Below, in pieces: positions 30,381 through 58,288 of a stretch of DNA of 64,000 bases (position 1 is the stretch's first letter; each line of letters starts with the position of its first letter). The notes beneath the pieces are model-generated. The model made no database searches and was not told where the DNA came from. It saw nothing but the letters and a program-made list of their open reading frames with translations. A program made the translations under genes and the position numbers. The DNA comes from an uncultured delta proteobacterium (lineage in GTDB: Bacteria; Myxococcota; Myxococcia; Myxococcales; Anaeromyxobacteraceae), in assembly GCA_963766715.1 (NCBI GenBank), contig CAVYBH010000001.1, forward strand, positions 232,245 through 296,244, given 5' to 3'.

Positions 30381-31349
30381 TTGGCAATTCTAGTCACCGG
30401 GGCCGCCGGCTTCATCGGGTCCAATCTCTCGAGAATCGTTCCTGGGTCAGGGCAAGAGGGTCGTGGGACTCGACGACCTTTCCCTCGGTCGCCTCTCGAA
30501 TCTCGGCGACGTGCTTGGCCACGCCGGATTCGACTTCGCGCAGGTGGACCTCTCCAATCCCGGAGCCTTCAGGGAAGCGCTGACGGCGGCCACCAGAGTG
30601 GAACCCCATCACCGAGGTCTGGCACATGGCGGCGAACTCGGACATCCAGGCCGGGGTCGTCGACCCGCAGGTCGACCTGCGCAACACCTTCCTGACGACC
30701 TTTCACACGCTCCAGATGATGAAGGAGCTGGGCATCGGCGTGCTCGCCTTTGCGTCCTCGTCCGCCATATATGGAAACCACGGAACCGCCACGCTGTCCG
30801 AGGACACCGGGCCGCTATTCCCCATATCGAGCTACGGCGCCATGAAGCTCGCGTCGGAGGCGACGATAAGCGCTGCGGTCGAGAGCTTCCTCGACCGCGC
30901 CTACATCTTCCGCTTTCCGAACGTGATCGGCGTGCCGGCGACGCATGGCGTGATGCTGGACTTCGTCCGGAAGCTGAAGGCCACCCCTGGGAGGCTCGAG
31001 GTCCTGGGCGACGGCACCCAGCGCAAGAGCTACCTTCACGTCGAGGAGCTCATCGACGCGATGTTCTTCGTGCGCGAGAAGGCCTGCGACGAGATCAACT
31101 GCTTCAACATCGGCGCCGACGACGACGGCGTGACGGTACGCGAAATCGCCGAGAGGGTCGTGCGTGAAGTCGTCGCCTTCCGCCTCGATCGCCTACGGCC
31201 AGGGCAACAAAGGCTGGGTGGGGGACGTGCCGACGTTCAAGTATTCCCTGGAGAAGCTGAGAAGGCTGGGGTGGCAGCCCAGGCTCGGCTCGGCAGAGGC
31301 CATCGGCCGGGCCGTGAAGCAGATCGCGGCACAGGAGTCGGAGAAGTGA
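30381..31349 (+). CDS. NAD-dependent epimerase/dehydratase (frameshifted)
   Basis: ILVTGAAGFIGSNL, HMAANSDI, YGAMKLASE, LGDGTQRKSY, GWVGDVP. Confidence 0.88.
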
Positions 31350-33313
31350 AGCAGGCCGTGATCCTCGCCGGCGGGAAGGGAACCCGCCTGCGGGAGAGGC
31401 TGGGCGACCTTCCGAAGCCCCTGGTCGACATCGGTGGGAAGCCCTTGCTCCAGCGACAGCTCGAGCTCCTGAGGAAGCACGGCTACACCCACGCGGTGCT
31501 GCTCGTGAGCCACTCCTACGAGAAGATCGTCGACTTCTGCGCCGCGCGTCGAGATGCCTGGGGCCTCTCCGTCGATTGTCTGAGGGACGATCAGCCGCTC
31601 GGTACCGCCGGAGCGGTCCTGGCCCAGCTGGAGCGTCTGGACGACGAGTTCCTCGTGATCTACGGGGACACCATGATGGACGTCGACCTGGGGCGATTCG
31701 AGGCGTTCCACCAATCCGAGGGCGGACGTCGCGGCAACCCTGTTCCTCCACCCGAACGATCACCCCGACGACTCCGACCTCGTGGAGATGGACGACCAAG
31801 GGAGGATCTCCGCCTTCCACCCCCATCCCCGCGACCCCGTGCGGTACTACGCCAACCTCGTCAACGCGGCGCTGTACGCGGTCAACCGCAGGGAGCTGGA
31901 GCCGTGGCGCCACCCGAAGGGCCCCGTCGACTTCGGCAAGGACCTCTTTCCGGCCATGCTCGACCGTGGGCGGATCCTGCTCGGCTATCCCAGCCCGGAG
32001 TACATCAAGGACTGCGGGACGCCTGGGCGGCTCGACAAGGTCCGTGCGCGACTTCACGTCCGGCCGCGGTGGCGCGCGCCAGCCTCGACGCTCCGCAGCA
32101 GAAGGCCGTCTTCCTCGATCGCGACGGCACGCTCAACCGTGAGGTGGGGCACCTCTCCCGGCACGACCAGTTCGAGCTGCTGCCAGGCGCGGACGAAGCC
32201 ATCAAGCGGCTGAACGGATCGGACTACAGCGACGATCGTCGTCACCAACCAGCCGGTCCTGGCACGAGGGGAGTGCACTCCCGGCGATGTGCAGGCAGGT
32301 CCACGCAAAGATGGACACGTTGCTCGGACGCGCGAGGTGCGTACGTCGACCGCCTCTATTACTGCCCTCACCATCCCGATCGAGGCTTCGTGGGCGAGGT
32401 GCCGGAACTCAAGATGCGACTGCGACTGCCGCAAGCCCCGTACCGGCATGGTGGACAGGGCCGCCAGGGATTTCAACCTCAACATTCGCGACTCCTGGCT
32501 CATCGGCGATTCGTCCGTGGACGTGCTGACGGCGAGCCGCGCGGGCCTGCGCTCCGTTCTCGTCCAGACCGGAAGCGCGGGCCTCGACGGCCGTCACCGG
32601 GTCGCACCCGACTTCGTCGCACCCGGACTTCTCGCCGCGGTGCAGTTCATCCTCGACGACCATCCCCGGTTGCTTGCCGAGTGCGCGCGGCTGGGCGCCG
32701 GAATCGGCGAGGGCGAGTTCGTGTTCGTGGGAGGGCTCTCGCGCAGCGGCAAGAGCACCTTCGCCCACTGCCTGCGCGACGCGCTCCGCGGCAGGGACCG
32801 GCCAGCCGTGATACTGTCCCTCGATCGCTGGATCCTGAGCGCGACCGAGCGAACGGAGACCGTCCTGGGCCGGTATGCCCAGAGCGAGATCCGGGCAATC
32901 CTGGCCAGGCTGGCCGCGAGAATCGAGCCCCGTGACCCTTGACCTGCCCTTCTACGATCAGAAGAATCGCATCCGCATGGAGAGCACGGAAAAGCCTGAT
33001 CGTCCACCAGGACGACGTGGTCATCGTCGACGGAACCATCGCCCTGTCCTTGCTCGACGCCGGTGCCGTCCCACCTCGCTCGAGGCTGGTTCGTCGACAT
33101 CGACGAGGACGAGCGCCACGCACGGGTGGTGGAGGAGTACAGGTTGCGGGGCTACAGCGCGTGACCAGGCGGAAGCCGTCTACCTGGAGAGGCAGCGGGA
33201 CGAGATCGCCGATCATCCAATCCTCGTCCAGGCTCGCGTCGGAGCGAATCCGCCTCGAGATGGGGCATGCCCGGCCGCCAGGATCACACCCGACGGCCGG
33301 GAGCGCCTCGTGA
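31346..33313 (+). CDS. Fusion of HddC-like nucleotidyltransferase, GmhB-like HAD-IIIA phosphatase and a P-loop kinase-like domain (frameshifted)
   Basis: AVILAGGKGTRL...PKPL; VFLDRDGTLN...YYCPHHP...CRKP...IGD; GGLSRSGKST...LSLDRW. Confidence 0.8.
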
Positions 33314-34320
33314 TCATCAGCCGTACGCCGCTCCGCATGAGCTTCGCCGGGGGCGGCAGCGACCTGCCCGTGCTTCTACCGCGAGCACGGCGGCGCCGTG
33401 GTCAGCACCGCCGATCGACAAGTACGTGTACGTCAACGTCAACCGGAAGTTCGACGACGGCATCCGGGTGGCCTACTCGCAAGAACGAGGAGGTCGCCAG
33501 CGTCCGCGAGATCGAGCACCGGCTGGTCCGCGCGGCGACTGGAGTACCTGCGGCATCGACGGCGGGATCGAGATCACGACGATCGCGGACATCCCGTCCA
33601 AGGGCACCGGGCTCGGATCCTCCAGCTCGTTCACGGTCGGCCTCCTGAACGCGCTTGATGCGCTTACATGGGGCGCTACGTGTCCGCAGGAGCAGCTCGG
33701 GCAGGGACAGCTGCCGGATCGAGATGGAGATCTGCGGCGAGCCGATCGGCAAGCAGGACCAGTACGCAGCCGCGTTCGGCGGCTTCAACCTCATCCAGTT
33801 CCAGCCCGACGACTCGGTCGTCGTCTCGCCCGATCATCTGCCGTCGAGAGCACGCTCCGGCAGGTCGAGCGCCAGACCCTGATGCTCTACACCGGCATCA
33901 CCCGCAGCGCGTCTGGCCTGCTGAAGGCAGCAGTCGGACGAGGTCGGCGCACAGGGCGGGAAGCAGCGACATCCTGAAGCGGATGGTGGAGCTGACGTAC
34001 ACCCTTGCGCGACGAGCTTCGCCGGGACAACGCCGACGCGATGGGACGAAATCCTCCACGAGAACTGGGAGCTCAAGAAGAGCATCACCAGCGGGATCAG
34101 CACCCCGGAGATCGACGAGTGGTACGCGAAGGCCCGGCGCGCCGGCGCCACGGGCGGCAAGATCCTCGGGGCCGGGGCCGGCGGGTTCCTCATGCTCTAT
34201 GCGCCCGAGCAGTCGCACGAGGGCATCAAGAAGGCGCTTCCCGGCTTGCGCCCAATCCCCATCAGCTTCGAGCCGCTCGGCAGCCGCATCATCTTCGTCA
34301 CCGAGACCGGAAGGAATTGA
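33310..34320 (+). CDS. hddA: GHMP kinase, D-glycero-D-manno-heptose 7-phosphate kinase-like (frameshifted)
   Basis: [48 protein letters not shown]. Confidence 0.88.
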
Positions 34321-34322
34321 CC

Positions 34323-34893
34323 ATGGAGTCCTTCTCCGGAAGTTCGTCCGCCTATTTCGCCCGACTGGGGGCCACGATCCAGGCGCTCGATTACCAGAGC
34401 CTCGACAGGGCGGTCGCGCTCGTCGCGAAGGCATGGCGCGACGGCCGGCAGGTGATCACGCTGGGGAACGGGGGCAGCTCCTTGACAGCCCTGCATTTCG
34501 TCAACGACTGGAACAAGAGCGTGGCTGCGCGGGGAGGGCGCCCATTTCGAGGGCGGAGCCTGGTCGACAACGTCGGCCTGATCATGGCGTATGCGAACGA
34601 CGTCAGCTTCCAGGACGTGTTCATCGAGCAACTCAAGAACATCCTGACACCCGGGGACCTCGTCATCGCAATCTCCGGGGAGCGGCAACTCGGAGAACGT
34701 GATCCGGGCGGTGGAGTACGCGAACTCCGCGGGCGCGGTCACGCTGGGATTGTGCGGCTACGACGGCGGCAGGCTGAAGGAGCGCGCGCATCACCAGGTG
34801 TGGGTGAACGTCCACGACATGCAACTCGCCGAGGACGTGCACGCCATGTTCGGCCACGTCGTCATGCAGGCCCTGTGCGGGGCGGTACCCTAG
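34323..34893 (+). CDS. gmhA: SIS-domain phosphoheptose isomerase (frameshift near 34680)
   Basis: GNGGS, AYANDVSF, AISGSGNSENVI after correction, QLAEDVH. Confidence 0.82.
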
Positions 34894-34906
34894 CGTCTCG
34901 GTGGGC

Positions 34907-35878
34907 CTAGGTCGCGGCAGGACGACGGAGCGCCCTCAGCTTCAGCCTGAGGCCGTAGCTCAGCGCGATGGCACGACGCGCCATGGCTTGCAGGACGTCG
35001 CCGAGGAACCGGCGTGGGCCGACCCTCCGATACAGGCGCCCGGCGTTCGAGAACCTCAGCCCGAGCGCCAGGTCCAGGAAGACGAAATTGGCGGCAGCCA
35101 TCGCGTCGGCGTCGGACAGGACGTCCTGGCCCATCACCTCGTCGAAGCACTGCTGGAGGAACACGCGGTTGTCGCGAAAGACGGAGTCGATCAGGAGCCG
35201 ATTCTGGCTCCGGATCAGCAGTTGCTTCTGGCGGGAGATGGAAGATCCGTGGACGCGATACTTGAGCAGTACCTCGTCGACGTTGACGGCCCTCGACCCG
35301 GAAAAGATCATCCGGGCCCACAAATCGAGGTCCTCGATCGCCTGGTACAGACCGTCCCCGTAGCGAAGCGAGCGGGTCCTCAGCGAGGCCGCCCTCATCG
35401 TGGTGCCCGAATGCGGGAACGGGGACCCCACGCAGAAGAAGAGGGCAATGGCGTGGTGAGTCCTGGGGACGGCCGAGAATCGAATCACGCGCTCCTGGGG
35501 GTCGACCTGCGCGAAGTGGGAGCCGCAGATGTCGGCGCGCTCGGCCTCCATCAGCGCCACCTGCCGGGCGAGCCGTTCCGGCAAGGAGACGTCGTCCGCG
35601 TCCATCCGCGCGAGAAAGGTCCCCTTCGCCGCCTCGACCCCCTCGTTCAGTGCACCGATCAGCGTGCCGCGTCGTCCCTTCAGGACCCGGATCCGGGGAT
35701 CGCGCGCCTGGTAGCGCTCGATGATGGCAAGGGAGTCATCGGTGGAGTCGTCGTAGACGATGAGGAACTCGAAATCCTGGACCGTCTGCCCCAATACGCT
35801 CTCGATGGCTTCGCCCAGGAAGGCCGCGCCGTTGTAGACGGGCATGATGACCGATACCAGTGGCGCCTGAGCCCGCAA
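34907..35878 (-). CDS. Glycosyltransferase family 2
   Basis: VSVIMPVYNG, DDSTDDS, ARMDADDVSLPERL. Confidence 0.92.
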   Translation of the reverse strand: MRAQAPLVSVIMPVYNGAAFLGEAIESVLGQTVQDFEFLIVYDDSTDDSLAIIERYQARDPRIRVLKGRRGTLIGALNEGVEAAKGTFLARMDADDVSLPERLARQVALMEAERADICGSHFAQVDPQERVIRFSAVPRTHHAIALFFCVGSPFPHSGTTMRAASLRTRSLRYGDGLYQAIEDLDLWARMIFSGSRAVNVDEVLLKYRVHGSSISRQKQLLIRSQNRLLIDSVFRDNRVFLQQCFDEVMGQDVLSDADAMAAANFVFLDLALGLRFSNAGRLYRRVGPRRFLGDVLQAMARRAIALSYGLRLKLRALRRPAAT

Positions 35879-44645: not shown

Positions 44646-45425
44646 ATGAAGGCCGTCATCCTCTGCGGTGGCCAGGGCACCCGCATCCGCGACGCCAGCG
44701 AGGCGATCCCCAAGCCGATGCTCCCGATCGGCGGCAAGCCGATCGTCTGGCACATCATGAAGTCCTACGCGCGCACGGCGTGAAGGAGTTCGTGCTCTGC
44801 CTGGGCTACAAGAGCTGGCTCATCAAGGAGTTCTTCCTCCACTACCGCCCCATGACGACCGACGTGACGGTCACGCTCGGCCGCCACGACCGGTCGAGTT
44901 CCACGGCCGGCACGGCGAGGAGGACTGGCGGGTGACACTCGCCGAGACCGGGGAGGACACCATGACCGGCGGCCGGGTCGCGGCGGTCCGCCGGTACGTC
45001 GAGGGCGACGAGCCCTTCCTGCTCACCTACGGTGACGGCGTCTCCGACGTGGACATCGCGCAACTCGTCGCTGTTCCACCGCGCCCACGGCAAGGTCGCC
45101 ACGGTGACCGCGGTGCGCCCGCCGGGGCGCTTCGGCGAGATGCGCATCGACGGCGGGCGCGTCACGGAGTTCAACGAGAAGCCGCAGGCCAGCGAGGGAT
45201 TCATCAACGGGGGCTTCTTCGTCCTCGACGGCCGACGGATCTGGGACTACATGGGCACGAGCCCCGGACGGTGCTCGAGCGGGAGCCCATGCGGCGGCTC
45301 GCGGCGGACGGGCAGCTCGTCGCCTTCCGGCACACCGGCTTCTGGCAGCCCATGGACACCTGCGCGAGTACACGCTCCTGAACGACCTGTGGGCGAGCGG
45401 GAAGGCGCCCTGGAAGACCTGGTGA
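44646..45425 (+). CDS. rfbF: Glucose-1-phosphate cytidylyltransferase (frameshifted)
   Basis: [46 protein letters not shown]. Confidence 0.93.
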
Positions 45426-46525
45426 TGGCGGCGCCCACCCGCCAGGACCTCGCCCGCGCCTACGCGGGCAAGCGGGTGTTCCTGACCGGGCACACCGGGT
45501 TCAAGGGAGGCTGGCTCGCGCTCTGGCTCCGCGACCTGGGGGCCGAGGTCCACGGGTACGCGCTGGCGCCCGACCCCGACCCGGTCCTCTTCCGGGCCGC
45601 CGGCGTCGAGGAGGCGGTCCACCACCGGGTCGGCGACGTGCGGGACCCCGCCGCGCTCCGGGCCGCGCTCGAGGAGGCCCGCCCCGACTTCGTCTTCCAC
45701 CTCGCCGCCCAGCCACTCGTCCGGGAGAGCTACGCCGCGCCGGTGGCGACCGTCGAGACGAACGTCCTCGGGACGGTGCACCTGCTCGAGGCCATCCGGC
45801 TGGCGCGGCGCCCCTGCGCGGTGGTGGTCGTGACGAGCGACAAGGCCTACGAGAACCGGGAGCGGCACGAGGGGTACCGGCGAGGACGAGGCCATGGGCG
45901 GCCACGACCTCTACTCGGCGTCGAAGGGGGCCGCCGAGATCCTCACCTCGGCCTACCGGCGCAGCTTCTTCCTCCCGCGCGCCTCGCCGACCACGGCGTG
46001 GCGCTCGCCACCGCCCGGGCCGGAAACGTGGTGGGCGGAGGCGACTGGGCGAAGGATCGGATCGTCCCGGACGCGGTCGCGCGCTCGCGGCGGGCCGGCC
46101 GATCCCGGTCCGAAACCCGCGCCGTGCGCCCCTGGCAGCACGTGCTCGAGCCGCTCGGCGGCTACCTGCTGCTGGGCGCCCGCCTGGCCGGGCGGGCGGC
46201 GCCGCCTTCGCGGAGGGCTGGAACTTCGGCCCGCGCGACGAGGACGCCGTGCCGGTTCGCGACCTGGTCGAGAACCTCATCGCGGCCTGGGGCAGCGGAA
46301 CCTGGGAGGACCGGAGCGATCCCGCGCGCCCCACGAGGCGACCTTCCTGCGGCTGCGCATCGAGAAGGCCCGGGACCGGCTCGGCTGGGCGCCGCGCTGG
46401 GGCGTCGGCGAGGCGATGCGGCGCACCGCCGAGTGGTACCGGGCCTTCCACGCCGGCGCGGGCCCGCCGAGATGCGGGCGCTCACGCTGGCCCAGATCCA
46501 CGACTACGAGGGAGCCGCCGCGTGA
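45425..46525 (+). CDS. rfbG: CDP-glucose 4,6-dehydratase (frameshifted)
   Basis: [52 protein letters not shown]. Confidence 0.95.
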
Positions 46526-47906
46526 CCGACCGGAAGGCAGAGGAGCGCCGGCTCACCGGCGAGATCGTCGAGCGGATGAGGGAGCTGGCGCGCCTGCGGG
46601 CCGAGGAGGAGCAGGAGCCCTTCGTCCCCGGCAAGACCCCCGTTCGCTACGCCGGGCGGGTCTACGGCGAGGAGGAGATGGCGAACCTGGCCGAGGCGTC
46701 GGCCGAGTTCTGGCTCACCGCCGGGCGCTGGCACCGGCGGCTGGAGACGGACCTCGCCGATGGTACGGCGTGAAGCACGCACGACTCGTGAACTCCGGGC
46801 TCGTCCGCGAACCTGCTCGCGGTGGCGGCGCTCACGAGCCACCTGCTCGGCGACCGGCGGCTGCGGCCGGGCGACGAGGTGATCACCGTCGCGGCGGGGT
46901 TCCCGACCACGGTGGCGCCGATCATCCAGCACGGGCTGGTCCCGGTGTTCGTCGACGTGACGTCCCCACCTGCAACGCCGACGTCTCGCGGCTGGAGGCG
47001 GCCCGCTCCCCGCGCACGCGCGCGGTGATGATGGCGCACACGCTGGGGAACCCGTTCGACCTCGGCGCGGTGAAGGCCTTCTGCGATCGGCACGACCTGT
47101 GGCTCGTCGAGGACAACTGCGACGCCGCGGGCTCGACTACCAGGGGAAGAAGACCGGGACCTTCGGCCACCTGGCCACGCTCTCCTTCTACCCGCCGCAC
47201 CACATGACGACCGGGGAGGGCGGGGCGGTGCTCACGAGCGACGGCCAGCTCCTGCGCGCGCGTGGAGAGCCTCCGCGACTGGGGGCGCGACTGCTGGTGC
47301 CAGTCGGGCGTGGACAACACCTGCGGCAAGCGCTTCGAGTGGCAGCTGGGCGAGCTCCCGAGCGGCTACGACCACAAGTACGTGTACAGCCACCTCGGCT
47401 ACAACCTGAAGATGACCGACCTGCAGGCGGCGGTCGGCGTGGCCCAGCTGGCGCGGCTCGACGGATTCGGGGCCGCGCGGCGGAGGAACTGGGCCTTCTA
47501 CCGCGAGGCGCTCGACGACCTGCAGGACGTGCTCGTGCTCCCCGAGGCGACGCCCGGCTCCGACCCGAGCTGGTTCGGCTTCCTGGTGACGGTGCGCCCG
47601 GGAGCCCCTTCACCCGCGACGACCTGGTTCGCAAGCTGGAGGCAGCGGAAGATCCAGACCCGGATGCTCTTCGCCGGCAACCTCGTCCGGCAGCCCGCGA
47701 TGACGGTGCTCGCCGCGCAGGCAGCGCGGGCCGGCGACCGCGCCGTACCGCGGCGTCTGGCAGAGCTCGAGAACACCGACGTCGTCATGAACCGGTCGCT
47801 GTGGGTGGGGGTCTATCCGGGGCTCACCGAGGCGATGCGCGACTGGGTCGCCCGATCGTTCCGGGAAATATGCAGGACTGGAAAGAGGGGAGCGGCCGCA
47901 AGATGA
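46522..47906 (+). CDS. rfbH: CDP-4-keto-6-deoxyglucose 3-dehydratase (E1, DdhC), frameshifted
   Basis: [43 protein letters not shown] (His at the PMP site), RDWGRDCWC...NTCGKRF, YDHKY. Confidence 0.95.
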
Positions 47907-48578
47907 GGGGACGAACTGCACTTGTCACAGGGGGCGCACGCGGAATTGGGCAGGCAATCGTCGAGCTGCTTCGAAGGGAGGAGGGGGGGTTCGTCCTGGC
48001 CCCGACCCGGCAGGAAATGGACCTGACCTCGGTCGGAGTCGATCGAGCGGTGCTGCGGGACCTGCAACTGCCCGTCGACATCCTGGTGAACAACGCGGGG
48101 ATCAACCCCCTGGGGTCGGCGGGCAGACTTCACCGATTTCACGACCTTGCCGCCACCATCCAGGTCAACCTGGTCGCCCCCATGCTGCTCGCGCGGGCGC
48201 TGGCCCCCGCCATGGCGCAGCGCGGCTTCGGGAGTACGTCAACGTCAGCTCCATCTGGAGTGCCGTGTCGCAATCCAGGCGTTTCGTGTACTCGACCACC
48301 AAGGCGGGGTTGAACGGCATGACACGGGCGCTCGCGGTCGAGGTCTACGGAATCGGCGTGTTCGTGAACTCCGTCGCACCGGGATACGTGAACACCGAGA
48401 TGACGAAGAAGAACAATGCGCCCGACGAGTTGCGGCGCATCGCCGGGACCATCCCAGCCGGCCGCCTCGCCGAGCCCCCGGAGATCGCGGCGGTCGTGGG
48501 CTTTCTCTGCTCGGCGCGGAACAGCTGCTCGTGACCGGGCAGACCCTCTTCGTCGACGGCGGCTTCACCATCGTATGA
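47903..48578 (+). CDS. Short-chain dehydrogenase/reductase (frameshifted)
   Basis: [31 protein letters not shown]. Confidence 0.88.
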
Positions 48579-49744
48579 GGCTCGACAGGCTCCCGCAGAG
48601 GATTGCCGGAAGGATTCGCCGGGAGGTCTCGTCCACGGCCCAGATTTGGCGCAAGAGCCGCGAGCTCGCGGGCGACCCGGACTACGATCTGGGCCGGGTG
48701 GACGAGGGATTCGCCGACCGCAGGGAGCCGCCCGCGGACGACTCGGAGATCCTGACCCGCATCTGCGTGGCCTACGGCAAGGCCAAGGCGATCCAGAAGG
48801 ACGCCTCGCCCGTCTACCGGCCGAGCAACGAGTGGCTGCCCGTCTACGAGGCGCCGCTCAAGCCCGTCATGGCGGCGCTGTCCAGCCACGACCTCCCCTC
48901 GCTCCGGAGGATGTACGGCAACTTCTGGAGGGACCCCTGCAGCACGGGGCTCCTGGGCTGGCCGCTCGACATGCAGACGGCCTTCTTCGGGAGGCGCATC
49001 AGCCGGCGCCACCGGATGCTGATGCTGAACGACGTGATTCACCGGCACCGGCTGTGGCGGAGCCTGCTCGGCAACACGCACGGCGTGAAGGACCTGGAAG
49101 CGCCCGCCATCGGCAATCCCTTCGGGTTCTTCGTCGACGGCACGTTCCTGAACTGCGGATGCGACTACCAGCACTACTACGCCACGCTCATCGGCCGGCT
49201 GCTCCGGACGGAGTCGACTCCCTGCGTGGTGGAGCTGGGCGGCGGGTTCGGGGGAATGGCGTACTACCTGATCCGCGACAACCCGGGCGCCGCCTACGTC
49301 GACCTGGACCTCCCGGAGAACGCCGCGCTCACCGCCTACCACCTCCTGAAGGCATTTCCCGGGAGGCGGATCCGCCTGTTCGGCGAGGCCGGATCGATTG
49401 AGGCGTCCATCCGGGACCGGGAGATCCAGATCCTGCCCAGCTTCGAGGCCGGGAACCTCCCGGACCAGTGCGCCGGCGTCGCCTTCAACTCCTACAGCCT
49501 GGCGGAGATGTCCCGGGAGACCATCACGTCCTTCATCCAGGACATCAGCCGGGTGGTTCACCCGAAGGGATATTTCCTCCACGTGAACCACAACAAGAAC
49601 AGCCTGGTCACCGCCGACGAGTTCGGCGTGGATCCCGCGCGCTTCGACCTGCTCTACAAGGTCCCGGCCATGTGGAACCTGGGGATCAATCCCCGGATGG
49701 ACGAGTTCGAGTACCTGTACAAGAAGAGGGCCTCGGCGGCCTGA
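48575..49744 (+). CDS. Putative sugar O-methyltransferase
   Basis: IGNP, VVELGGGFGGMAYY, YVDLDLPE, FNSYSLAEM. Confidence 0.75.
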   Translation: MRLDRLPQRIAGRIRREVSSTAQIWRKSRELAGDPDYDLGRVDEGFADRREPPADDSEILTRICVAYGKAKAIQKDASPVYRPSNEWLPVYEAPLKPVMAALSSHDLPSLRRMYGNFWRDPCSTGLLGWPLDMQTAFFGRRISRRHRMLMLNDVIHRHRLWRSLLGNTHGVKDLEAPAIGNPFGFFVDGTFLNCGCDYQHYYATLIGRLLRTESTPCVVELGGGFGGMAYYLIRDNPGAAYVDLDLPENAALTAYHLLKAFPGRRIRLFGEAGSIEASIRDREIQILPSFEAGNLPDQCAGVAFNSYSLAEMSRETITSFIQDISRVVHPKGYFLHVNHNKNSLVTADEFGVDPARFDLLYKVPAMWNLGINPRMDEFEYLYKKRASAA

Positions 49745-49768
49745 GGGCCGGGCCCGCCGCGGGGCGGC

Positions 49769-50858
49769 CTACAGCCCGCGCAGCTCGATCCGCGCGGAGC
49801 TCCTCGTCGTAGGCGTACGGGCTGTCGACACGTCGATCATGATCGGCTTGTCCGCCTCCACCGGCTCAGCAGCACCTCGCCGCGCATCAGCTCGCGGCAG
49901 GAGATCTGCCCCTTCTGCAGCGGGATGGCGAGATAGACGTCCCTCGTGCCTCGCGTGAGCACGTGGCCGGCCGGCAGGTCGCGCTCGCGCGTAGACGCCG
50001 CGGACAGGGCGTCGAGGTACGTCGATCTCCTTGTCGCATCGGCCGCTTCTGCTCGATGCCGGGCGCGCCGCACATCTCCTGCGCCTTCTTGAAGGCCTTG
50101 AACCAGTTGTCGATCTGCTGGGGCAGCGAGCAGTACGGGGAGACGCCACGCCGTCGGCGTCGATGTCGATGTGGCGCTCGAAGGTGCGCGCGCCCTTGGC
50201 GTAGGCGATCAGCGATCGACGCGGTCCAGTCGTGGTACTCGTGCGTCGAGAAGCCGATGACGTGGTCCGGGTAGCGGTTCGCGCAGGAAGTCGATCTGGT
50301 TGAGCTCGAGCTCGTGGTCCTCGGTCGGGTAGAGCGAGACGCAGTGGTTGATGGCCAGCGGGATGTTGCGGTTCTCGAAGAAGGTGACGAGGTCGTCCAT
50401 GTCCTTCAGCGACGAGCCGCCGGTGGACACGATGACCGGCTTGCCGTGGTCCGCGATCTTCTCGATCAGGATCCAGTCGTTGATGTCGGAGCTGGCGATC
50501 TTGATGATCGGCAGGCCGAGCTCCACGCACAGGTCGACGGACTCCTCGTCGAACGGCGTGGCCATCGGGATGCAGCCGCTCTCGCGGATCGCCTCCACCA
50601 GCGTGGCGTAGTCGTCGTTCGGCAGCTGGGTGTCGAGACGTCTCTTGATGTAGCGGATGTCGGTGCGGTCGCCGGAAGTCCTTGTGGATGAAGCTCTCGA
50701 CGTCGCGGAACTGGAGCTTGATCGCGGCCCGGACGTTGTTGAAGCGGACGATGCGCGAGAACTCTAGATGATCTTCAGGCCGCGCTCGAGCTTGCCCGGT
50801 GGTTGTTGGCCATCTCCAGGACGAAGAGGTCCTCGAAGATGTCGCGGTTCATGATCAT
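49769..50858 (-). CDS. NeuB/SpsE-family PEP-dependent ulosonate synthase with SAF domain (frameshifted)
   Basis: LEMANNH, AIKLQFR, TPFDEESVD, KIASSD, IVSTGG, HCVSLYP, GFSTHE, FERH. Confidence 0.88.
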
Positions 50859-52057
50859 GCGGTTCCTTTCTCAAGTGCTGGCGCGCCGTTGGAGCGCTCC
50901 GCCATGGACTGCACGATCTCGCGCAGCTCCCCGGCGAACCGCTCGTTGTTCTCCACGCCGAGGAAGGCGAGCCGCCCCACCTCGGTCATCACCACCAGGT
51001 TCAACGTCGAGCCGGTGTTCTTCTTGTCCCGGGACAGGGCCTCGCGCAGCTGCCCCAGGTCGAGCGCGCCCAGCGCCGCCCGGCAGCGGTCGTCGACGAT
51101 CAGGTCGATCACGCCAGCACCCGGCGTGTGGGGACGGCCGGCCTCGATCATGCCGCGGTTGGCCGCCACCCGGTTGACGATGGCCATGCCCAGCCCGATG
51201 GCCTGCCCGTGCGGGATGGCGAACCCCGAGAGGTTCTCGATGGCGTGGCCGATGGTGTGGCCGTAGTTGAGGGCCCGCCGCTGGTCCAGCTCGAACTCGT
51301 CCCGCTCGATCACCGCGCGCTTCACCACCAGCGAGTCCCAGGTGAGGGCGCGCAGCGCCTGCAACGACGGCAGCCCGCCGCCGGCGGCGTCGAACGCGGC
51401 GGCGAAGCGGTCGGCGAAGAGGGCCCGCCGGTGAGGTGGAGCTTGAGGATTCCGCCCAGGCCGGAGCGCAAGATCCAGCGGGGCGCCAGCGTGGCCAGGA
51501 AGCCGGGGTCGATCACCACCTGGCGCGGCGCCGCGAAGAGCGCCAGCTGGTTCTTGTACTTGCCGTGGTTCACGCCGGCCTTGGCGCCGATGCAGCTGTC
51601 GCACTGCGACAGCAGCGTGGTGGAAGAAGGTCGAGGGGAGGCCCCGCTTGAAGAGGTGGGCCGCGAAGCCGCCCACGTCCTGGACGATGCCCCCACCCAC
51701 CACCACCAGGGTATTGGTCTGCGTCAGCCCCGCCTCGGCCAGCCAGTCGAGCACCGGGATGACGCCGCCGGCGGGCGACTTGACCGCCTCGCTGGCGGTG
51801 AGCTCGAGCACGCGGCCCCCCGGGTCCACGGCCACGCCGGCCAGGTGGAGGGCCCGGACCTTGCCGTCCACCAGCAGGCGCGCCCGCGGGTGCTTGGCCA
51901 GCAAGGTTCCGCCAGCCACTCGGCGGCGGCCGCGCCGGGGGCCTGCCGCACGGTGTAGGTCCTGGGGACCGACCGGATTTCCAGCTCCCGGGGCGGCCAG
52001 ATTGGCCGCGTCGACGCGGTAGGTCTCGTCCTGGATCCTGAAGGCGAGCTGGTTCAT
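50855..52057 (-). CDS. Divergent 3-dehydroquinate synthase (AroB)-like sugar-phosphate lyase/cyclase (frameshifted)
   Basis: VVGGGIVQDV, TTLLSQCDSCIGAKAGVN, KNQL, DEFE...RRALNYGHTIGHAIE, HGQAI, DKKN. Confidence 0.85.
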   Translation of the reverse strand: MNQLAFRIQDETYRVDAANLAAPGAGNPVGPQDLHRAAGPRRGRRRVAGGTLLAKHPRARLLVDGKVRALHLAGVAVDPGGRVLELTASEAVKSPAGGVIPVLDWLAEAGLTQTNTLVVVGGGIVQDVGGFAAHLFKRGLPSTFFHHAAVAVRQLHRRQGRREPRQVQEPAGALRGAAPGGDRPRLPGHAGAPLDLALRPGRNPQAPPHRRALFADRFAAAFDAAGGGLPSLQALRALTWDSLVVKRAVIERDEFELDQRRALNYGHTIGHAIENLSGFAIPHGQAIGLGMAIVNRVAANRGMIEAGRPHTPGAGVIDLIVDDRCRAALGALDLGQLREALSRDKKNTGSTLNLVVMTEVGRLAFLGVENNERFAGELREIVQSMAERSNGAPALEKGTA

Positions 52058-52726
52058 CCGGCCTGGAATCCCCCGGCGGTGTAGCCGCCGTCGGCCACCA
52101 CGTTCTGCCCCGTCAGGTAGCGGTTGGCCTCGCTGCAGAGGAACCAGGCCAGCTCGGCGATGTCGGCGGGCTGCCCGAGCCGGCGCAGCGGGACCGCCGC
52201 CTCCAGGGACCGGATGGTGGCCTCGTCGTTGTTGCGCCGGGTCATGGCGGTGTCGATGAAGCCGGGCGAGAGGGCGTTGACCAGCACGCCGTCCCGCCCC
52301 AGCTCCAGGGCCAGCGAGCGGACCGCGCCGATGAGGGCGTGCTTGGAGGTGGCGTAGGCCAGCCGCTTCTCGCGGGCGATGACGCCGTAGATTGAGGAGA
52401 TGGCCAGCACCCGGCCGCTGCCGCGGGCGCGGAAGCCGGGCGCCAGCAGCTGGCATAGCCGCACGAAGGACACGGTGTTGACGCGCAGGGAGCGCTCCAG
52501 CTCCTCGAGGGGGATCTGCTCGAAGGGCTTGGGCGTGTTGAACCCGGCGCAGTGGACGAAGGCGTCGAAGGGGGTCTGGGCGGCCACGAAGGGGGCCAGC
52601 CCGGGCGTCGGCCGAGAGATTCAGCTCCCGGCTGCGCGGCGCCACCACCTCGAACCCGGCCCGGGCGAAGCGGTCGCCGATGGCGGCGCCGATCTCGCCG
52701 TGGCCGCCTGTGAGCAGGAGCCGCAC
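52054..52726 (-). CDS. Short-chain dehydrogenase/reductase (frameshift near 52600)
   Basis: TGGHGEIG, HCAGFN, YATSK, PGFIDT, TGQNVVADGG. Confidence 0.88.
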
Positions 52727-52729
52727 CGG

Positions 52730-54524
52730 TCAGCCGTCCCGGCGGGACGAGCAGGTTCTCGGCTAGTTCGTCCCGGTCGAGGAAGGGCGCGAGGTCCTCG
52801 AGCGGCGAGGAGACCATCGCCCGTCTCGAGCCGGCGGAGGCGAGCTTCGGCGCGAACGGCTGGCGAGGTCGAGCATCACCTCGCAGAGCACCGGCGCCCG
52901 GCGGCGCGAGGACGTCGCCCAGGTCCCCGGCAGGTCCGCGTGGGCCGCGACTGCGGTAGGGGAGGCCGTAGGCCGCGGCCAGCCTGCCGAAGTCGGGGAA
53001 GCTGAGCCCGGTCTCGAGGCTGCAGCACCACGTTGCCGGGAAGAAGGCCTCCTGGGTCTGGCGGATCGAGTGGTAGCCGGCGTTGTCCAGGACGAAGAGC
53101 TTGAGCGGCAGCCGGTGGTGCGGACCGTCTGCAGCTCCTGCAGGTTCATCTGGAGGCTGCCGTCGCCGGCGAGGCAGACGACCGCTTGCCGCCGGTCGCG
53201 AAGCGGCGCCGATGGCGGCCGGGAGGTCGTACCCCATCGCGGCGCAGCCGGAGTTGGTGAAGAGGCGCTGGCCCGTCCTAGATGGGCCGCCTGGAAGGTG
53301 CGACGCAGGCGGTGCCGTCGCCCGCCACCACGTGGCGTCCCTCCGGGAGGCGCTCGCAGAGCGCCTGGACGAAGCAGTACGGGTTCACGTCGCCGCTCTC
53401 CAGTACTCCGGCAGCACGACCGGGTAGCGCTCGCGCCGCGCGCGGCACCAGTCGCGCCAGCCCGGTCCGCCGGGTGCGGCGCGCCGGCGGCGGGATCCGC
53501 GAGCAGCGGCGTCGAGGAAGCGCCGAGCGTCGGCGTGCACGGGCAGGTCGAGCGTGACCGTGGGCTTCTCCAGCTCGGCGGCGTCGATGTCGACCACGGT
53601 CTTGAAGGCGGCGCGGGCGAAGGCCTGCCAGAAGTAGCTGACCTGCCGGATGTTGAGCCGGCTGCCGAGCACGAGCAGGAAGTCGGCGTTCTGCACGGCG
53701 AAGTTCCCGGCGCGGTCGCCGATGGTCCCGGGGCGGCCGACGTAGAGCGGGTGGTCGCCGCGAGCAGGTCGTGGGCGTTGCAGGCGGTCACCACCGGGAT
53801 CCCCAGCCCCTCGGCGAAGCGCCGGAGCGCTCGCGGCGCGCCGCGCGAGTGCGGATGCCCGGGCCGGCGAGGACGACCGGCCGCTCGGCGCGCGCGAGCC
53901 GCCGAGCAGCCTCGCGCAGCGCCGGCGAGCGCGCGCCCGTCGAGCGAGCGGCGCGCTCCGCCGCCGGCGGATCGTAGCCGGCGAGCGCCGCCTCGTCGAC
54001 CTGCGCCCCCTGCACGTTCATCGGGACGTCGATCCAGACCGGGCCCGGGCGGCCCGACCGTCGCGAGGTGGAGCGCCTTCTCGAGGTGGTAGCGGATCGG
54101 CGCGGGTCGGTGACCATCACGGCGTACTTGGTGATCGGCGCGACCAGCGGACGATGTCGATCTCCTGGTCGCCGAGCTGGCGCAGCGGCGACCGGGCGTG
54201 CGCCGAGCAGGTCTCCTGCTTCACCTGCCCGGAGACGAAGAAGCAGGGCCGGAGTCGACGTAGGCCCCGAAGACGCCGGTGATGGCGTTGGTCCCGCCGG
54301 GGCCGGTGGTCACGTTGACCGCCGCGAGGCGGCCGGTGACGCGGGAGTAGCTCTCCGCGGCCATGGCGCAGGCCTGCTCGTGGTGGCAGGAGACGTACTC
54401 GAGCCCCTTGCGCGGCCGAAGGCGTCGTTGAGGTGCATCGCGCCGCCGCCGGTCACCAGGAAGACGTGGCGGAACCCCGGGCGGCGAGGGTCTGGGCGAT
54501 GTAGTCGGCGACGCGGATCGACAT
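52730..54524 (-). CDS. ThDP-dependent acetolactate-synthase-like carboligase (YerE-like), frameshifted
   Basis: RVADYI, VTGGGAMHLND, CHHEQACAMAAE, VTTGPGGTNAITG, GRPGPVWIDVP, MGYDLPAAIG, GDGSLQMNLQEL...N. Confidence 0.9.
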
Positions 54525-54582
54525 TCGGACTCCACCGGAAATTCGGACTCAGGGAGGCGAAATAGTATCGTAGGGCCCCGGC

Positions 54583-55631
54583 ATGACCAAAGGGTTCTCC
54601 ACCGATTTCGCGCGCTTCGAGCGGGATGCCCCGCGGCTCTGGGAGCCCTACCGAGGGGCGCGCCTGCTCGTCACCGGGGGTACGGGTTTCGTGGGCAAGT
54701 GGCTCCTGGAGGGGCTGCTCCACGGCGTCGACGCGCTCGGCCTGGACACCCGGGTGACGGTGCTGACCCGCGACCCGGACGCCTTCCGGAGGCTGCACCC
54801 CCGGCTGGCGCGCCACCCGCGGATCACCCTCCTGCCGGGCGACGTCCTCACGCTGCGATTGCTCGCCGGGGAGTTCACCCACGTCGTCCACGGCGCCGCC
54901 TCGGCGAACGCGAAGGACTACGCGGCCGCGCCGAGGGTGATGTTCGACACCATCGTCGAGGGGACCCGGCGCCTGCTCGAGCTCTCCCGGCTCGCCGGGG
55001 CCCGTCGGTTCCTCTTCCTCAGCTCCGGGGCGGTCTACGGCCGCCAGCCCCCCGAGCTCTCCCACGTTCCCGAGTCGTTCGAGGAGCACCGACGCCGCGG
55101 CCCCGGGCACGGAGTACGGGCAGGCCAAGCGCGCCGCGGAGCAGCTCTGCACGGCCGCGGCCGGCACGGAGATGGACGCGGTGCTCGCGCGGTGCTTCGC
55201 GTTCTCTGGCCCGTACTTGCCGCTCGACGCCCACTTCGCGATCGGCAACTTCGTGCGGGACGCGATCCAAGGAGGGCCGATCGGATCAGGGCGACGGAAC
55301 CCCGATGCGCTCCTACCTCTACGGCGCGGACCTGGCCGCGTGGCTCCTCACCCTGCTGGCGCGTGGGCGGGCCGGACGGGCCTACAACGTCGGTTCGGAG
55401 GCGGCCATCTCGATCGAGGACCTGGCGAAGACGGTGACGCGGGTGCTCGCGGTCGGTCCCGGGGTGGAGATCGCCGGCCAGCGCGTGCCGGGGCGGTTGC
55501 CCGAGCGGTACGTACCCTCCACGAGGCGAGCCCGGGAGGAGCTCGGGCTCGTGGAAACCGTGAGCCTGGAGCGGGCCATCCTCCGGATGGCGGAGGAGGC
55601 ACAATGGCGAAGAAGCTCATCAGCATCCTGA
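54583..55631 (+). CDS. NAD-dependent epimerase/dehydratase or reductase (possibly YerF-like), frameshifted
   Basis: [46 protein letters not shown]. Confidence 0.85.
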
Positions 55632-56547
55632 CCCCCTGCTACAACGAAGAGGACAACGTCGAGGAACTGACCGGCGCGTCCGCGCCGTCATGGCAGCCGC
55701 CGGCGCTACCGGTACGAGCACATCTTCGTTGACAACGCTCCACCGACCCACCGTCGAGAAGGTGAAGCGGCTCGCCGCCCAGGACAAGCGCATCAAGATC
55801 ATCGTCAACGTCCGGAACTTCGGCCACATCCGCTCCCCCTACCACGGCCTGCTGCAGGCCCGGGGCGACGCAGTGATCGCCATGGCGTCGGACCTGCAGG
55901 ACCCGCCGGAGATGATCCCGCAGTTCGTCCGCAAGTGGGAGGAGGGCACAGTCGTCTCGGCGGTCAAGAGCGCGAGCCGAGGAGTCCTGGATCGTCTACG
56001 GTGCGAGGGGCCTACTACCGACGTAGGCGCCTCTGCGAACTCGAGCTGGTCGAGAACTTGACCGGCTTCGGCCTGTACGACCGGAGGGTGATGGAGGACA
56101 TCCGTCGCTGCGCGAGCCCTATCCCTACTTCCGGGGCCTGATCTGCGACCTGGGCTTCGACTGTGCCAAGTCCCGTTCACCCAGCCACCCGCAAGGGGGA
56201 ATCACCAAGACAACTTTCCGGTGCTCCTCGACATGGCGCTGCTCGGGCTCACGAGCCACACCAAGATCCCGCTCCGGCTCGCCACCGTTCTGGGGTTCGC
56301 GGCGGCGGTCTTCTTCCTCTTCGCCGGCGTGGCCTACCTGGTGGCGAAGCTCTTCTTCTGGAACACCTTCACCGCCGGCACCGTGCCGGCCATAATCGGG
56401 GTCTTCTTCCTGGGTCGATCAGACTGATGTTCCTGGGCCTCATCGGCGAGTACGTGGGGACCATCTTCACCTACGTCCAGGCGACGGCCGCTCGTCATCG
56501 AGAAGGAGCGGGTGAACTTCGACGACGAGGCCGGAACCCCGAAATGA
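55604..56547 (+). CDS. GtrB-like polyprenyl-phosphate glycosyltransferase (GT2 with two C-terminal TM), frameshifted
   Basis: [22 protein letters not shown], two TM helices, GLIGEYVG. Confidence 0.88.
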
Positions 56548-56955
56548 GCGGGACGCTCGCCCGGCTCCAGGCCCATCGGCTCTGGCAGCCGCTCAGCTAC
56601 CTCGCGGTGGGCGGATGGAACACCGTGTTCGGGCTCGGGCTGTTCTGGCTCGCGTAGGCTCCTGGCGCCACCGTGAACTACCTGGTGCTGCTCGCGGCGT
56701 GCAACGTCCTCGCCATCACGAACGCATTCGTCTGCTACAAGCTGCTCGTCTTCCGCACGCGCGGGAACTGGGTGCGGGAGTACGCGCGGTTCTGGGCCGT
56801 GTACGGGAGGCGGCGCTGGTGGGCCTCGGCCTCGTGGCGCTGCTGGTCCAGATCCTCGGGCATGTCGCCGGTGACGGCGAACGTCCTCGCCACGGGCGTC
56901 ATCGTCGTCGCAGGATTCCTGGGGCACAAGCGGGTGTCGTTCGCGGCGGACGTAG
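56544..56955 (+). CDS. GtrA-family flippase (frameshifted, end approximate)
   Basis: YLAVGGWNTVFG, NAFVCYKLLVF, REYARF, four TM segments. Confidence 0.8.
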
Positions 56956-56968
56956 GGCGGCGCGGCCC

Positions 56969-58288
56969 CTACGCCTTCACCACCCGCGGCCCGCCGCCGC
57001 TCGGGAAGAGCGGCGCCACGAGGTTGCGCGTGTCCACCACCAGCGGCACGCTCCGCGAAGAGCGCCGGGTCCTTGAAGAGGTCGTGGGCGGTGGAGACCA
57101 CCACCGCGTCGTAGCCCTTCCAGGTCGCCGCGTCCTTCGCCACGGACTTCATCCCCAGCTCCCGCTTGCGCGTCTTCGGCGTCGCGGGGAAGAACGGGTC
57201 GCAGTAGTCGACAATCGCGCCGCTCCTGGAGGAGCTCGATGATCTCGTAGGAGGGCGACTCGCGGTCGTCGTCGAGTTGGCCTTGTAGGCGAGGCCGAGG
57301 ACGAGGATGCGAGCCCTTCACCGGCTTCGCGTCCTCGTTCAGCGCCTCGGCGACCTTCGCCACCACCCAGCGCGGCATGCCGGTGTTGATCTCGCCGGCC
57401 AGTTCCACGAAGCGGGCCCACTGCCCGTGCTCGGCCGCCTTCCAGGAGAGGTAGAAGGGGTCGAGCGGGATGCAGTGACCGCCCAGGCCCGGGCCCGGGT
57501 AGAAGGGCATGAAGCCGAAGGGCTTGGTCTTCGCGGCCTCGATGACCTCCCAGACGTCGATGCCCATCCGGTCGAAGACGATCTTCAGCTCGTTCACCAG
57601 CGCGATGTTCACCGAACGGAAGACGTTCTCGAGGAGCTTGGCCGACTCGGCCACGCGCGCGCAGGAGACCGGCACCACCTTGGCGACGCCGGTCCGGTAG
57701 AGCGCCACGGCCAGCTCGGTGGAGTCGGCGTCCACCCCGCCCACGACCTTGGCGGTGGTCTTGGTGTCGAAGTCCTTGCGGCCCGGGTCCTCGCGCTCTG
57801 GCGAGAAGGCGAGGAAGAAGTCGCGGCCGCACATGAGGCCGCTCGTCTCGAGGATGGGGAGGAGCTCCTCGTCGGTCGTTCCCGGGTAGGTGGTCGACTC
57901 GAGCAGACCAGCTGACCCTTGCGGAGCCGCTTCGCGATCTCCCGCCCGGTGGCGTGGATGTAGGAGTTGTCCGGCTCGCGGTGCGTCGCCGAGCGGCGTG
58001 GGCACGCAGATGGCGATGGCGTCGCAGTCGCGCAGCCCGTCGAAGTCGGTGGTGGCCTGGTACCTCCCGCTCCTCACCGCGGCGGCGACCCGCTCGGCCC
58101 CGATGTGCTTGATGAAGGACTCGCCCCTTCCGGAGCGCCTCCACCTTGCGGGGGTCGAGGTCGAAGCCGGTGACCTGGAAGCCCGCCTCGTGGAAGAGGA
58201 GGGCGAGGGGGAGGCCGACGTAGCCCTGGCCGATGATGCCGATGCGGGCGCTGCGGTCGTGGATGCGGGCGAGAAGTCCGTTTTTCAT
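56969..58288 (-). CDS. UDP-N-acetylhexosamine 6-dehydrogenase (WbpA/WecC family), frameshifted
   Basis: GQGYVGLPL, ICVPTPL, ESTTYPGTT, FSPERED, GPGLGGHCIPLDP, DDRESP, DTRN. Confidence 0.93.

Follow-up and report, generated by a model that had tools for sequence, protein, structure and literature searches.

A gene cluster of the Anaeromyxobacteraceae predicted to build a caryophyllose-type branched sugar with a NeuB-type synthase and an AroB-like enzyme that may skip ring closure

Comparison with related loci indicates that a gene cluster of an uncultured delta proteobacterium (GTDB Myxococcota; Myxococcia; Myxococcales; Anaeromyxobacteraceae) on balance probably makes a caryophyllose-type, probably O-methylated precursor of a surface polysaccharide, namely a CDP-activated 3,6-dideoxyhexose with a linear, methyl-ended C6 side chain. 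The cluster occupies positions 44646..55631 of the window, the 64,000 nt stretch analyzed here (GCA_963766715.1, contig CAVYBH010000001.1, 232,245-296,244, forward strand). In the proposed pathway, RfbFGH would supply CDP-4-keto-3,6-dideoxyglucose as acceptor, and a NeuB-like enzyme would join PEP to erythrose-4-phosphate, giving 3-deoxy-D-ribo-heptulosonate 7-phosphate, the C4 epimer of DAHP. An AroB-like enzyme would then follow the DHQS reaction through its opening half, in which NAD oxidation is followed by loss of phosphate and by reduction, and would release a C6 methyl ketone, skipping the aldol ring closure, after which the adjacent SDR would reduce C6. The resulting 3,7-dideoxy keto acid would be decarboxylated by a ThDP enzyme and added to C4 of the CDP-keto sugar, an extended SDR would reduce C1' by analogy with YerF, and a GT2 glycosyltransferase and a GtrA protein would load the sugar on a lipid carrier and flip it. 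The core of this chain (ulosonate phosphate, elimination, SDR, ThDP ligation and caryophyllose-type product) had been proposed in an earlier note on this DNA; it is supported by the comparisons, and none of the note's refuting conditions that could be checked went against it. The NeuB-fed donor and the non-cyclizing AroB-like step are predicted here and were not met in the literature searched, whereas the ThDP route to long branches is already known (PMC9306805).

Genes were called with Pfam on six-frame pieces and by tblastn with intact homologues, and every gene listed in the earlier note proved to be real, though most cluster genes are broken across at least two reading frames. Since three of eight housekeeping genes checked on other contigs and genes neighboring the cluster are also broken, the frame breaks are probably assembly errors. 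The four sequencing runs examined, of seven that matched, held fragments of relatives and no reads of this strain; each of the seven has a share below 0.1, and RNA runs are absent among them. The order of the divergent extended SDR and the ThDP, SDR, AroB-like and NeuB genes is found intact in a genome of the same family (G015, locus L253), and thus the arrangement is not due to chance. The NeuB, AroB-like and ThDP genes also occur together in surveyed loci. Both ATGA overlaps previously claimed were located by tblastn, at the SDR/AroB-like and AroB-like/NeuB junctions.

The plus strand carries the rfbFGH genes from which YerE-type pathways to acyl-branched sugars obtain their acceptor. The glucose-1-phosphate cytidylyltransferase gene rfbF (44646..45440, end approximate) is frameshifted and was traced by tblastn through several frames with a homologue that passes TIGR02623 (residues 7-264); rfbG, for CDP-glucose 4,6-dehydratase (45437..46525, start approximate; PF16363/PF01370), matches a TIGR02622-passing homologue at 47%; and rfbH, for the PLP-dependent C3 dehydrase (46522..47906, start approximate; PF01041), lies in three pieces, the C-terminal one scoring 297 bits against the RfbH model NF011936. 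These families lead to CDP-4-keto-3,6-dideoxyglucose. An ATGA overlap connects rfbH to a second classical SDR (47903..48578; PF13561/PF00106), which has the Rossmann and YxxxK motifs, matches the AroB-adjacent SDR of G015 at 35% and is possibly an alternative side-chain reductase. Another ATGA overlap joins this gene to a putative sugar O-methyltransferase (48575..49744; TIGR04371, 57.2 bits against a cut-off of 44; a homologue from NeuB-ThDP locus L023 matches at 47%), the presence of which suggests a methylated product. The divergent extended SDR was confirmed at 54583..55631 on the plus strand (PF01370); it matches at 46-53% a family present in 58 of 80 NeuB-ThDP loci, a co-occurrence from which its predicted YerF-like role, reduction of the C1' ketone on the branch, is drawn, the candidates for branch-ketone reduction in the cluster being this protein and the two classical SDRs. 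A plus-strand GT2 glycosyltransferase (55604..56570, end approximate; PF00535), the homologue of which is nearest to the PgfS/ArnC families, likely loads the sugar onto polyprenyl phosphate and belongs to a GT2 family found in 59 of 80 NeuB loci; it is followed on the same strand by a GtrA-type flippase (56567..57000, ends approximate; PF04138). The second SDR and the O-methyltransferase had been overlooked before, and the GT2 and GtrA genes adjoin the cluster just past its end, beyond the range of the earlier note.

The minus-strand ThDP carboligase (52730..54524) contains all three TPP domains, and its motifs are present. For its orthologue, the best solved structure is 8RPH (E 8.5e-123), compared with 3.6e-71 for the best acetolactate synthase, and the homologue falls under all displayed acetolactate synthase cut-offs; the CDG motif described for JanthE is present in 8RPH, which appears to be that enzyme. 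By these sequence comparisons the protein belongs to the YerE-like group and not to the acetolactate synthases. The closest orthologous ThDP enzyme, which in G015 accompanies NeuB and AroB-like genes, is sister (support 0.95) to one that accompanies HpcH and AroB-like genes. In vitro work on model substrates has demonstrated ThDP-dependent ligation by ErwE, MMAR_2332 and MyGE. That such an enzyme may use a long donor is supported by comparison but is not a new idea, since the route forms part of the 'unifying scheme' of Steitz et al. 2022 (PMC9306805), which, in its supplement and the part of its main text examined, relies on a pyruvate aldolase and a ready-made deoxy-aldehyde of unexplained origin and does not contain the word 'dehydroquinate'. 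A literature search found no published account of a NeuB-type donor step or of a non-cyclizing AroB-like step, and the bradyrhizose paper has 0 mentions of AroB, NeuB or a thiamine gene.

The predicted maker of the 3-deoxy-heptulosonate 7-phosphate precursor is a PEP-dependent synthase of a NeuB subfamily (49769..50858, minus strand; PF03102; pieces 56-83% to P0016). The subfamily shares the TIM-barrel PEP-condensing motifs and metal histidines of NeuB, PseI and its closest structure, the structural-genomics protein 3G8R, but scores far under the cut-offs of the NeuB and PseI models (127 against 400 and 115 against 340). In contrast to the sialic, pseudaminic and legionaminic acid synthases, it aligns an Ile with Arg314, which we take to be the N-acetyl-binding residue of NeuB. 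Sialic-acid-type enzymes are also recognized by a CMP-transferase partner, whereas in the best 80 loci this subfamily adjoins a ThDP enzyme in 75 (55 of the 56 long ones) and a CMP-transferase in none. The description of the gene as an orphan holds for the whole 64-kb window, where a search that was positive on three control loci found no NeuA- or KdsB-type cytidylyltransferase. An AroB-like gene occurs in only 1 of the 80 best NeuB loci, so that an obligate coupling of the two was rejected, and NeuB exchanges with HpcH aldolases across loci; NeuB and AroB-like enzymes are separate, swappable modules. An apparent AroB-NeuB fusion (P0138) was set aside as evidence because its junction looks frameshifted. 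The plasmid collection contained no match to the NeuB subfamily and 22 weak matches (30-36% identity) to the AroB-like query. By sugar nomenclature, NeuB products carry the C4 hydroxyl opposite to that of DAHP, and D-digitoxose, which is D-ribo, is the building block of the caryophyllose chain; the facial selectivity of NeuB acting on erythrose-4-phosphate would therefore give the D-ribo chain of caryophyllose.

The AroB-like protein, a predicted non-cyclizing sugar-phosphate lyase (50855..52057, minus strand; PF01761 and PF24621; pieces 61-78% to P0122), has the fold, NAD and metal sites and DAHP-binding residues of DHQS and of the cyclases DOIS, EEVS and DDGS, and belongs to the sugar-phosphate cyclase superfamily (P0122 model: pLDDT 93; Z 39.5, rmsd 2.9 and 349 aligned residues against 1NVD). 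Unlike AroB, these cyclases and the TIGR04425 proteins, it falls in its own clade (SH-aLRT 100 for the separation from canonical AroB), with the signature Q123, W139, C153 and F252 in P0122 numbering. P0122 and the G015 orthologue score 234 and 236 bits on the canonical model TIGR01357 (cut-off 305) and 284 and 287 on the best model, TIGR04425 for AroB-related phospholyases (cut-off 400), which SIS-linked relatives pass (418 and 474). A refuting condition in the earlier note required, besides complementation of an aroB mutant, that this be the only copy in the genome; a canonical aroB lies on contig C8. The DHQS residues that presumably bind carboxylate and phosphate are kept, which fits an ulosonate phosphate as substrate. 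Its partner, a classical SDR (52054..52726, minus strand; PF13561, 155 bits; 63-77% to the G015 orthologue), is predicted to reduce the C6 methyl ketone. An AroB-like gene and one classical SDR are paired in 75 of 80 viral loci, many of them near-copies so that the counts overstate independence, and in 19 of 20 cellular loci; the partner SDR occurs in 2 of 80 NeuB loci and in 0 of 65 canonical-aroB loci, the latter being the control part of a metagenome scan with the AroB-like alignment that was dominated by canonical aroB, with roughly the first 15 of its 80 loci being relevant. The upstream partner of this pair varies, being NeuB, HpcH aldolase, HMGL aldolase, KdsA or a GmhA-like SIS protein with two dehydrogenases, any of which could supply a 2-keto sugar acid. 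A strict mutual exclusion of HAD phosphatases and AroB-like enzymes was rejected, since both occur together in loci L009 and L089.

The closest described system is the caryophyllose sub-cluster of the Mycobacterium marinum LOS locus (MMAR_2328-2337), which shares rfbFGH, a YerE-like ThDP enzyme, GT2 and GtrA with the window cluster. Its operon is annotated as rfbF, a glycosyltransferase, the ThDP enzyme (MMAR_2332), an HpcH aldolase, an SDR (2330), a '3-dehydroquinate synthase' (2329) and a sugar kinase (2328), with rfbH/rfbG divergent. Both clusters carry an SDR and 'dehydroquinate synthase' pair beside the ThDP gene and the donor-forming enzyme, the likeness of MMAR_2329 to the AroB-like protein being a matter of annotation and gene order. 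The earlier note had pointed to this known producer as a check: the pair is there, but the donor synthase is an HpcH pyruvate aldolase where the window cluster has a NeuB-type PEP synthase. No HpcH homologue was found in the window or the genome (85% complete) at E 1e-12. The window cluster further differs in having an O-methyltransferase and a second SDR and in lacking an FGGY kinase. In Trinickia caryophylli, the eponymous caryophyllose producer, the AroB-like protein P0282 also falls within the clade.

A different chain length or sequence of steps toward a linear long-branched deoxysugar is unlikely, yet has several points in its favor. The NeuB-like enzyme could start from a free aldose or from a pentose phosphate, or the AroB-like enzyme and SDR could work before it, on the aldose, or after ligation, on the CDP-sugar. 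Branches of C4, C6 and C7 are all known (PMC9306805), one locus pairs the AroB-like gene with KdsA, a C8 synthase, two classical SDRs are present in the window, and the FGGY kinase of M. marinum and of 23 of 24 viral NeuB+AroB loci suggests re-phosphorylation. These points are countered by the intact carboxylate-binding Lys/Arg set of DHQS and by the CMP-transferase loci, which keep the same AroB-like and SDR pair with no CDP-sugar acceptor. Moreover, erythrose-4-phosphate is unable to form the ring used by DHQS chemistry.

A true cyclase, giving a carbocycle (epi-dehydroquinate, quinate-like or caryose-like), appears improbable, and the carbocycle that the earlier note held as its alternative is the less likely product. 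All the catalytic cyclase residues of DHQS are conserved, the P0122 fold matches DHQS, DOIS and EEVS equally (Z 36-39.5), the nearest NCBI model, TIGR04425, is labelled '(cyclizing)', the DHQS enol intermediate can cyclize without an enzyme, and caryose, a carbocycle, is another product of T. caryophylli. Neither the fingerprint of the active site nor the fold search distinguished cyclizing from non-cyclizing function. Ring closure, however, would use up C2 and so destroy the 2-keto acid needed by the ThDP enzyme or CMP-ulosonate transferase that is present in 78 of 80 viral AroB-like loci. In addition, M. marinum has the annotated pair and yet makes a linear, methyl-ended chain, and the caryose ring is five-membered, which DHQS chemistry does not give. 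We thus consider phosphate elimination without ring closure the reasonably probable activity of the AroB-like enzyme.

It is very unlikely that the AroB-like gene is inactive or decaying in this strain, leaving the cluster to make a terminal-hydroxyl branch or nothing: near 51450 the copy reads Gly where the metal-ligand Glu is otherwise invariant, frame breaks are many, and a second NeuB-ThDP locus on contig C4 lacks an AroB-like gene, but the other 26 checked positions are intact, housekeeping genes are broken too, and G015 has an unbroken orthologous cassette. Yersiniose A (YerE/YerF) and erwiniose (ErwE/F/I/J) share with the cluster the CDP-4-keto-3,6-dideoxyglucose acceptor, ThDP branching and branch-ketone reduction, but their C2 and C4 branches come from pyruvate or pyruvate plus acetaldehyde, unlike the C6 branch predicted here, and NeuB and AroB-like genes are unlisted in their clusters as described. 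Least probable of all is that the cluster makes plain yersiniose, with NeuB and the AroB-like enzyme serving something else; MyGE and JanthE do take pyruvate in vitro and 34 of 80 viral ThDP loci have no donor gene among those tested, but NeuB is tied to the ThDP gene with no other consumer, neuB is translationally coupled in the window cluster, and ErwE refuses pyruvate (PMC9306805).

Beyond the caryophyllose-type product itself, we lean toward the view that an AroB-like enzyme and one SDR form a new terminal-deoxygenation route for sugar acids, fed by the NeuB subfamily as a 4-epi-DAHP synthase. If true, the same cassette explains the methyl end of mycobacterial caryophyllose, and a testable two-enzyme step fills the gap in the published scheme, the source of the deoxy end of the chain. 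It would also assign jobs to two large misannotated subfamilies, the NeuB type, for which species genomes contain at least 582 matching stretches, and a DHQS-family set of 5,058 candidates of mixed type, among the 120 listed matches of which no mycobacterial or R. palustris name appears. A DHQS relative that halts before the aldol step would inform how much of the DHQS reaction the enzyme catalyzes, and a 4-epi-DAHP synthase would be a useful biocatalyst. Finally, viral 'aroB' and 'acetolactate synthase' calls have been cited as evidence of viral amino-acid synthesis (PMC5371798); the neighborhood of these genes points instead to glycan decoration, and we are similarly inclined to read the 'amino-acid synthesis' genes of prasinoviruses and many phages as branched-sugar genes.

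The cluster at 44646..55631 very probably makes a long-branched sugar of some form, and the pathway is real and conserved. Pfam searches of six-frame pieces and tblastn with intact homologues recovered all genes named in the earlier note, along with both ATGA overlaps (SDR/AroB and AroB/NeuB); another classical SDR, at 47903-48578, had been overlooked, as had a sugar O-methyltransferase (TIGR04371) at 48575-49744. GT2 and then GtrA genes follow the extended SDR, and the cluster is embedded in a polysaccharide island of ~55 kb carrying wzi, rml, gmd/fcl, a GDP-heptose set and wzb/wza/wzc-like genes. Just upstream in this island (window 30584-34907) lie a GDP-heptose-type set (epimerase, nucleotidyltransferase, HAD, GHMP kinase, SIS) and a GT11 gene. 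The sequence (70% GC in the window) is rich in errors, and since three of eight housekeeping genes (nine tried, eight giving matches) were also broken, the frame breaks in the cluster are probably assembly errors. Near 51450 (minus strand), the AroB-like gene encodes Gly at a metal-ligand Glu invariant in the homologues tallied; this codon is flanked by two frame breaks, the remaining 26 checked positions are intact, and the Gly represents either a sequencing error or loss of function. Being the sole genomic copy was part of a condition that the earlier note set against its own reading; a canonical aroB is present on contig C8, scoring 143.9 bits versus 47 and 37 bits for the window pieces.

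The subfamily of the NeuB-like gene is tight, its members sharing about 70-83% identity across phyla over the searched piece. It matched 582 of 600 candidate stretches from species genomes, the best 80 of which were kept for locus counts using HMMs built from these loci. A ThDP enzyme occurred at 75 of these 80 loci (55/56 among those of at least 17 kb), an extended SDR at 58, RfbH at 49, an HAD phosphatase at 30, an AroB-like gene at one and a classical SDR at two, two weaker SDR matches in locus L014 being below threshold and outside the count. Since no CMP-transferase was detected at any of the 80 loci by an HMM that was positive at three control loci, the subfamily is a true orphan, as originally claimed, with a consumer of 2-keto acids as its only steady partner. 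It scores far under the NeuB and PseI family cut-offs, and its closest solved structure is PDB 3G8R (E 7e-81 versus 1e-25 for the next), an uncharacterised structural-genomics 'SpsE' protein that could serve for modelling the aldose-phosphate site. In the structure-match alignment, Ile aligns with Arg314 of N. meningitidis NeuB, the residue that binds the N-acetyl group. Among 61 related genomes, three carry the gene, the window's own included, and it was seen in none of 13 genomes of the same genus. Two records (P0062, which appears frameshifted, and P0102) contain joined HAD-NeuB proteins, candidate fusions.

AroB-like relatives came from metagenomes, from viral contigs (the best 80 out of 160) and from two samples of 401 genomes, which yielded 16 and 10 matches. 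Wide regions were examined for 10 of the 16, the other six remaining outside the counts, and all 10 of the second sample were included. Four of the regions from the first sample (G051, G063, G186 and G190) lacked sugar genes and were left out as probably canonical; G186 and G190 cluster with canonical AroB in a tree. The 20 cellular loci (including L009, L089, L090 and L094) encode an SDR (19), a ThDP enzyme (12), an HpcH aldolase (10), NeuB (3) and a GmhA-like SIS protein (4). At the 80 viral loci, which include many near-copies, the counts were SDR 75, ThDP 47, CMP-transferase 33, NeuB 24, FGGY kinase 24 and HpcH 21, with a ThDP enzyme or CMP-transferase at 78. These partner genes were all missing from the 65 canonical-aroB loci used as controls. 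In a quick tree with EEVS and DOIS rows left out, one branch (SH-aLRT 100) splits sugar-cluster AroB-like proteins from canonical AroB (23 versus 12 rows), and partner types are interleaved on the sugar-cluster side. The genes also occur together beyond the window, as the earlier note's reading required, the exact cassette being intact in G015, a genome of the same family. On the ThDP tree, its enzyme is sister to one from an HpcH+AroB locus, with NeuB-only enzymes branching next, which indicates free exchange of donor modules around a single type of ligase. The kinase common at other AroB-like loci is missing from the window cluster. A virus-like contig (L103:8996-10819) carries HpcH and AroB-like segments in a single frame, a candidate fusion.

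ErwE, MMAR_2332 and MyGE have been shown to use long 2-keto acids bearing hydroxyl groups, and the caryophyllose donor was proposed to arise from a pyruvate aldolase and a ready-made aldehyde (Steitz et al. 2022, PMC9306805); a 2025 review (PMC12247030) adds JanthE and >200 YerE-like clusters. In the text covered, neither paper mentions dehydroquinate or neuraminate synthase, and a literature search, with subscription papers, theses and some M. marinum papers beyond its scope, found no paper giving the NeuB subfamily or AroB-like proteins these roles. According to published gene tables (PMC13354803), the M. marinum LOS operon comprises MMAR_2334 (rfbF), 2333 (GT), 2332 (ThDP), 2331 (HpcH aldolase), 2330 (SDR), 2329 ('3-dehydroquinate synthase') and 2328 (sugar kinase), with rfbH, rfbG and GtrA divergent from it. 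This caryophyllose producer shares rfbFGH, the ThDP enzyme and the SDR-'aroB' pair with the window, MMAR_2329 being placed by annotation and gene order, but has an HpcH aldolase instead of the NeuB-like enzyme. MMAR_2329 is an expressed gene, regulated together with LOS genes (PMC12395582), and another aroB-annotated gene lies elsewhere in the M. marinum genome. Another known producer, T. caryophylli, encodes a member of the AroB-like clade (P0282) by sequence and tree placement. The caryophyllose chain is described as linear and methyl-ended, and its chemical synthesis starts from D-digitoxose (PMC7821131).

Whether the AroB-like protein cyclises is not decided by structure, since the predicted fold matches several cyclases equally well and the DHQS residues are kept in all 105 sugar-cluster rows, barring one truncated row and His/Arg variation at Lys202. 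In DHQS these residues bind metal, phosphate and carboxylate. The nearest NCBI model (TIGR04425) describes the family as cyclising, as a hypothesis. Genomic context favors release without ring closure because the ThDP enzymes and CMP-transferases that act downstream both require an unaltered C2, and we predict that the AroB-like protein stops short of ring closure.

The analysis itself shows what the genes encode, how they are coupled and co-occur, where the proteins fall in the tree and which residues are conserved; RfbFGH chemistry and long-donor ThDP ligation are established by other work. Within the known pathways to acyl-branched sugars, donor synthesis by a NeuB-type enzyme and the non-cyclising AroB-like step would be new and testable, and we judge the full mechanism including that step somewhat better than an even prospect. 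The NeuB-like enzyme would condense PEP with erythrose-4-P to 3-deoxy-D-ribo-heptulosonate 7-P. Judged from the names, the C4-OH in Fischer projection is on the right in Neu5Ac and pseudaminic acid and on the left in DAHP; since the sides are opposite, NeuB geometry would give the D-ribo chain of digitoxose, which would explain why the cell's own DAHP goes unused. The AroB-like protein would then eliminate phosphate, setting free a methyl ketone, its paired SDR would reduce C6, and ThDP ligation would be followed by C1' reduction by the extended SDR. O-methylation is probable, and GT2 and GtrA would load and flip the sugar, respectively. Loci with HAD but no AroB-like gene would give a chain with a CH2OH end; both occur together in two loci, which, like the missing kinase and the Gly codon, speaks against the scheme. 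A second locus in this genome (rfbF-rfbG-rfbH-ThDP-NeuB-FkbM-extSDR-GT2; contig C4, L255:6883-16000), in which no AroB-like, SDR or HAD gene was seen, would yield a chain with a different end.

Related cassettes occur in viruses. OtV5 genes 035f-043f include 'acetolactate synthase' and '3-dehydroquinate synthase' amid a glycosyltransferase, epimerase, aminotransferase and dehydratase (PMC2386258, table). A review interprets these two prasinovirus genes as amino-acid synthesis; the prasinovirus layout (OtV5 by gene table; L095, L381-L387) is the same as that of the sugar clusters, and the genes likely serve branched-sugar synthesis. The MpV-1 oxovalerate aldolase and acetaldehyde dehydrogenase correspond to the erwiniose gene set. 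A PanB-like hydroxymethyltransferase lies near YerE-like ThDP genes in 26 of 80 viral loci (e.g., L184, L195, L199, L208 and L225), possibly a further donor module giving a hydroxymethylated keto acid. About 24-33 of the 80 viral AroB-like loci carry a phage-like cassette of CMP-transferase, SDR, AroB-like protein, class III aminotransferase and GmhA-like SIS (L256:8140-12808; also L265, L268, L273 and others), whose product may be a CMP-activated amino-deoxy ulosonic acid. Finally, four bacterial loci (L372, L374, L375 and L377) encode an oxidoreductase, GmhA-like SIS, SDR, AroB-like protein and second dehydrogenase, and three of them also have a CMP-transferase; the dehydrogenase families are Pfam-confirmed only for like genes of L092, and the cassette possibly converts sedoheptulose-7-P to a heptulosonate without an aldolase.
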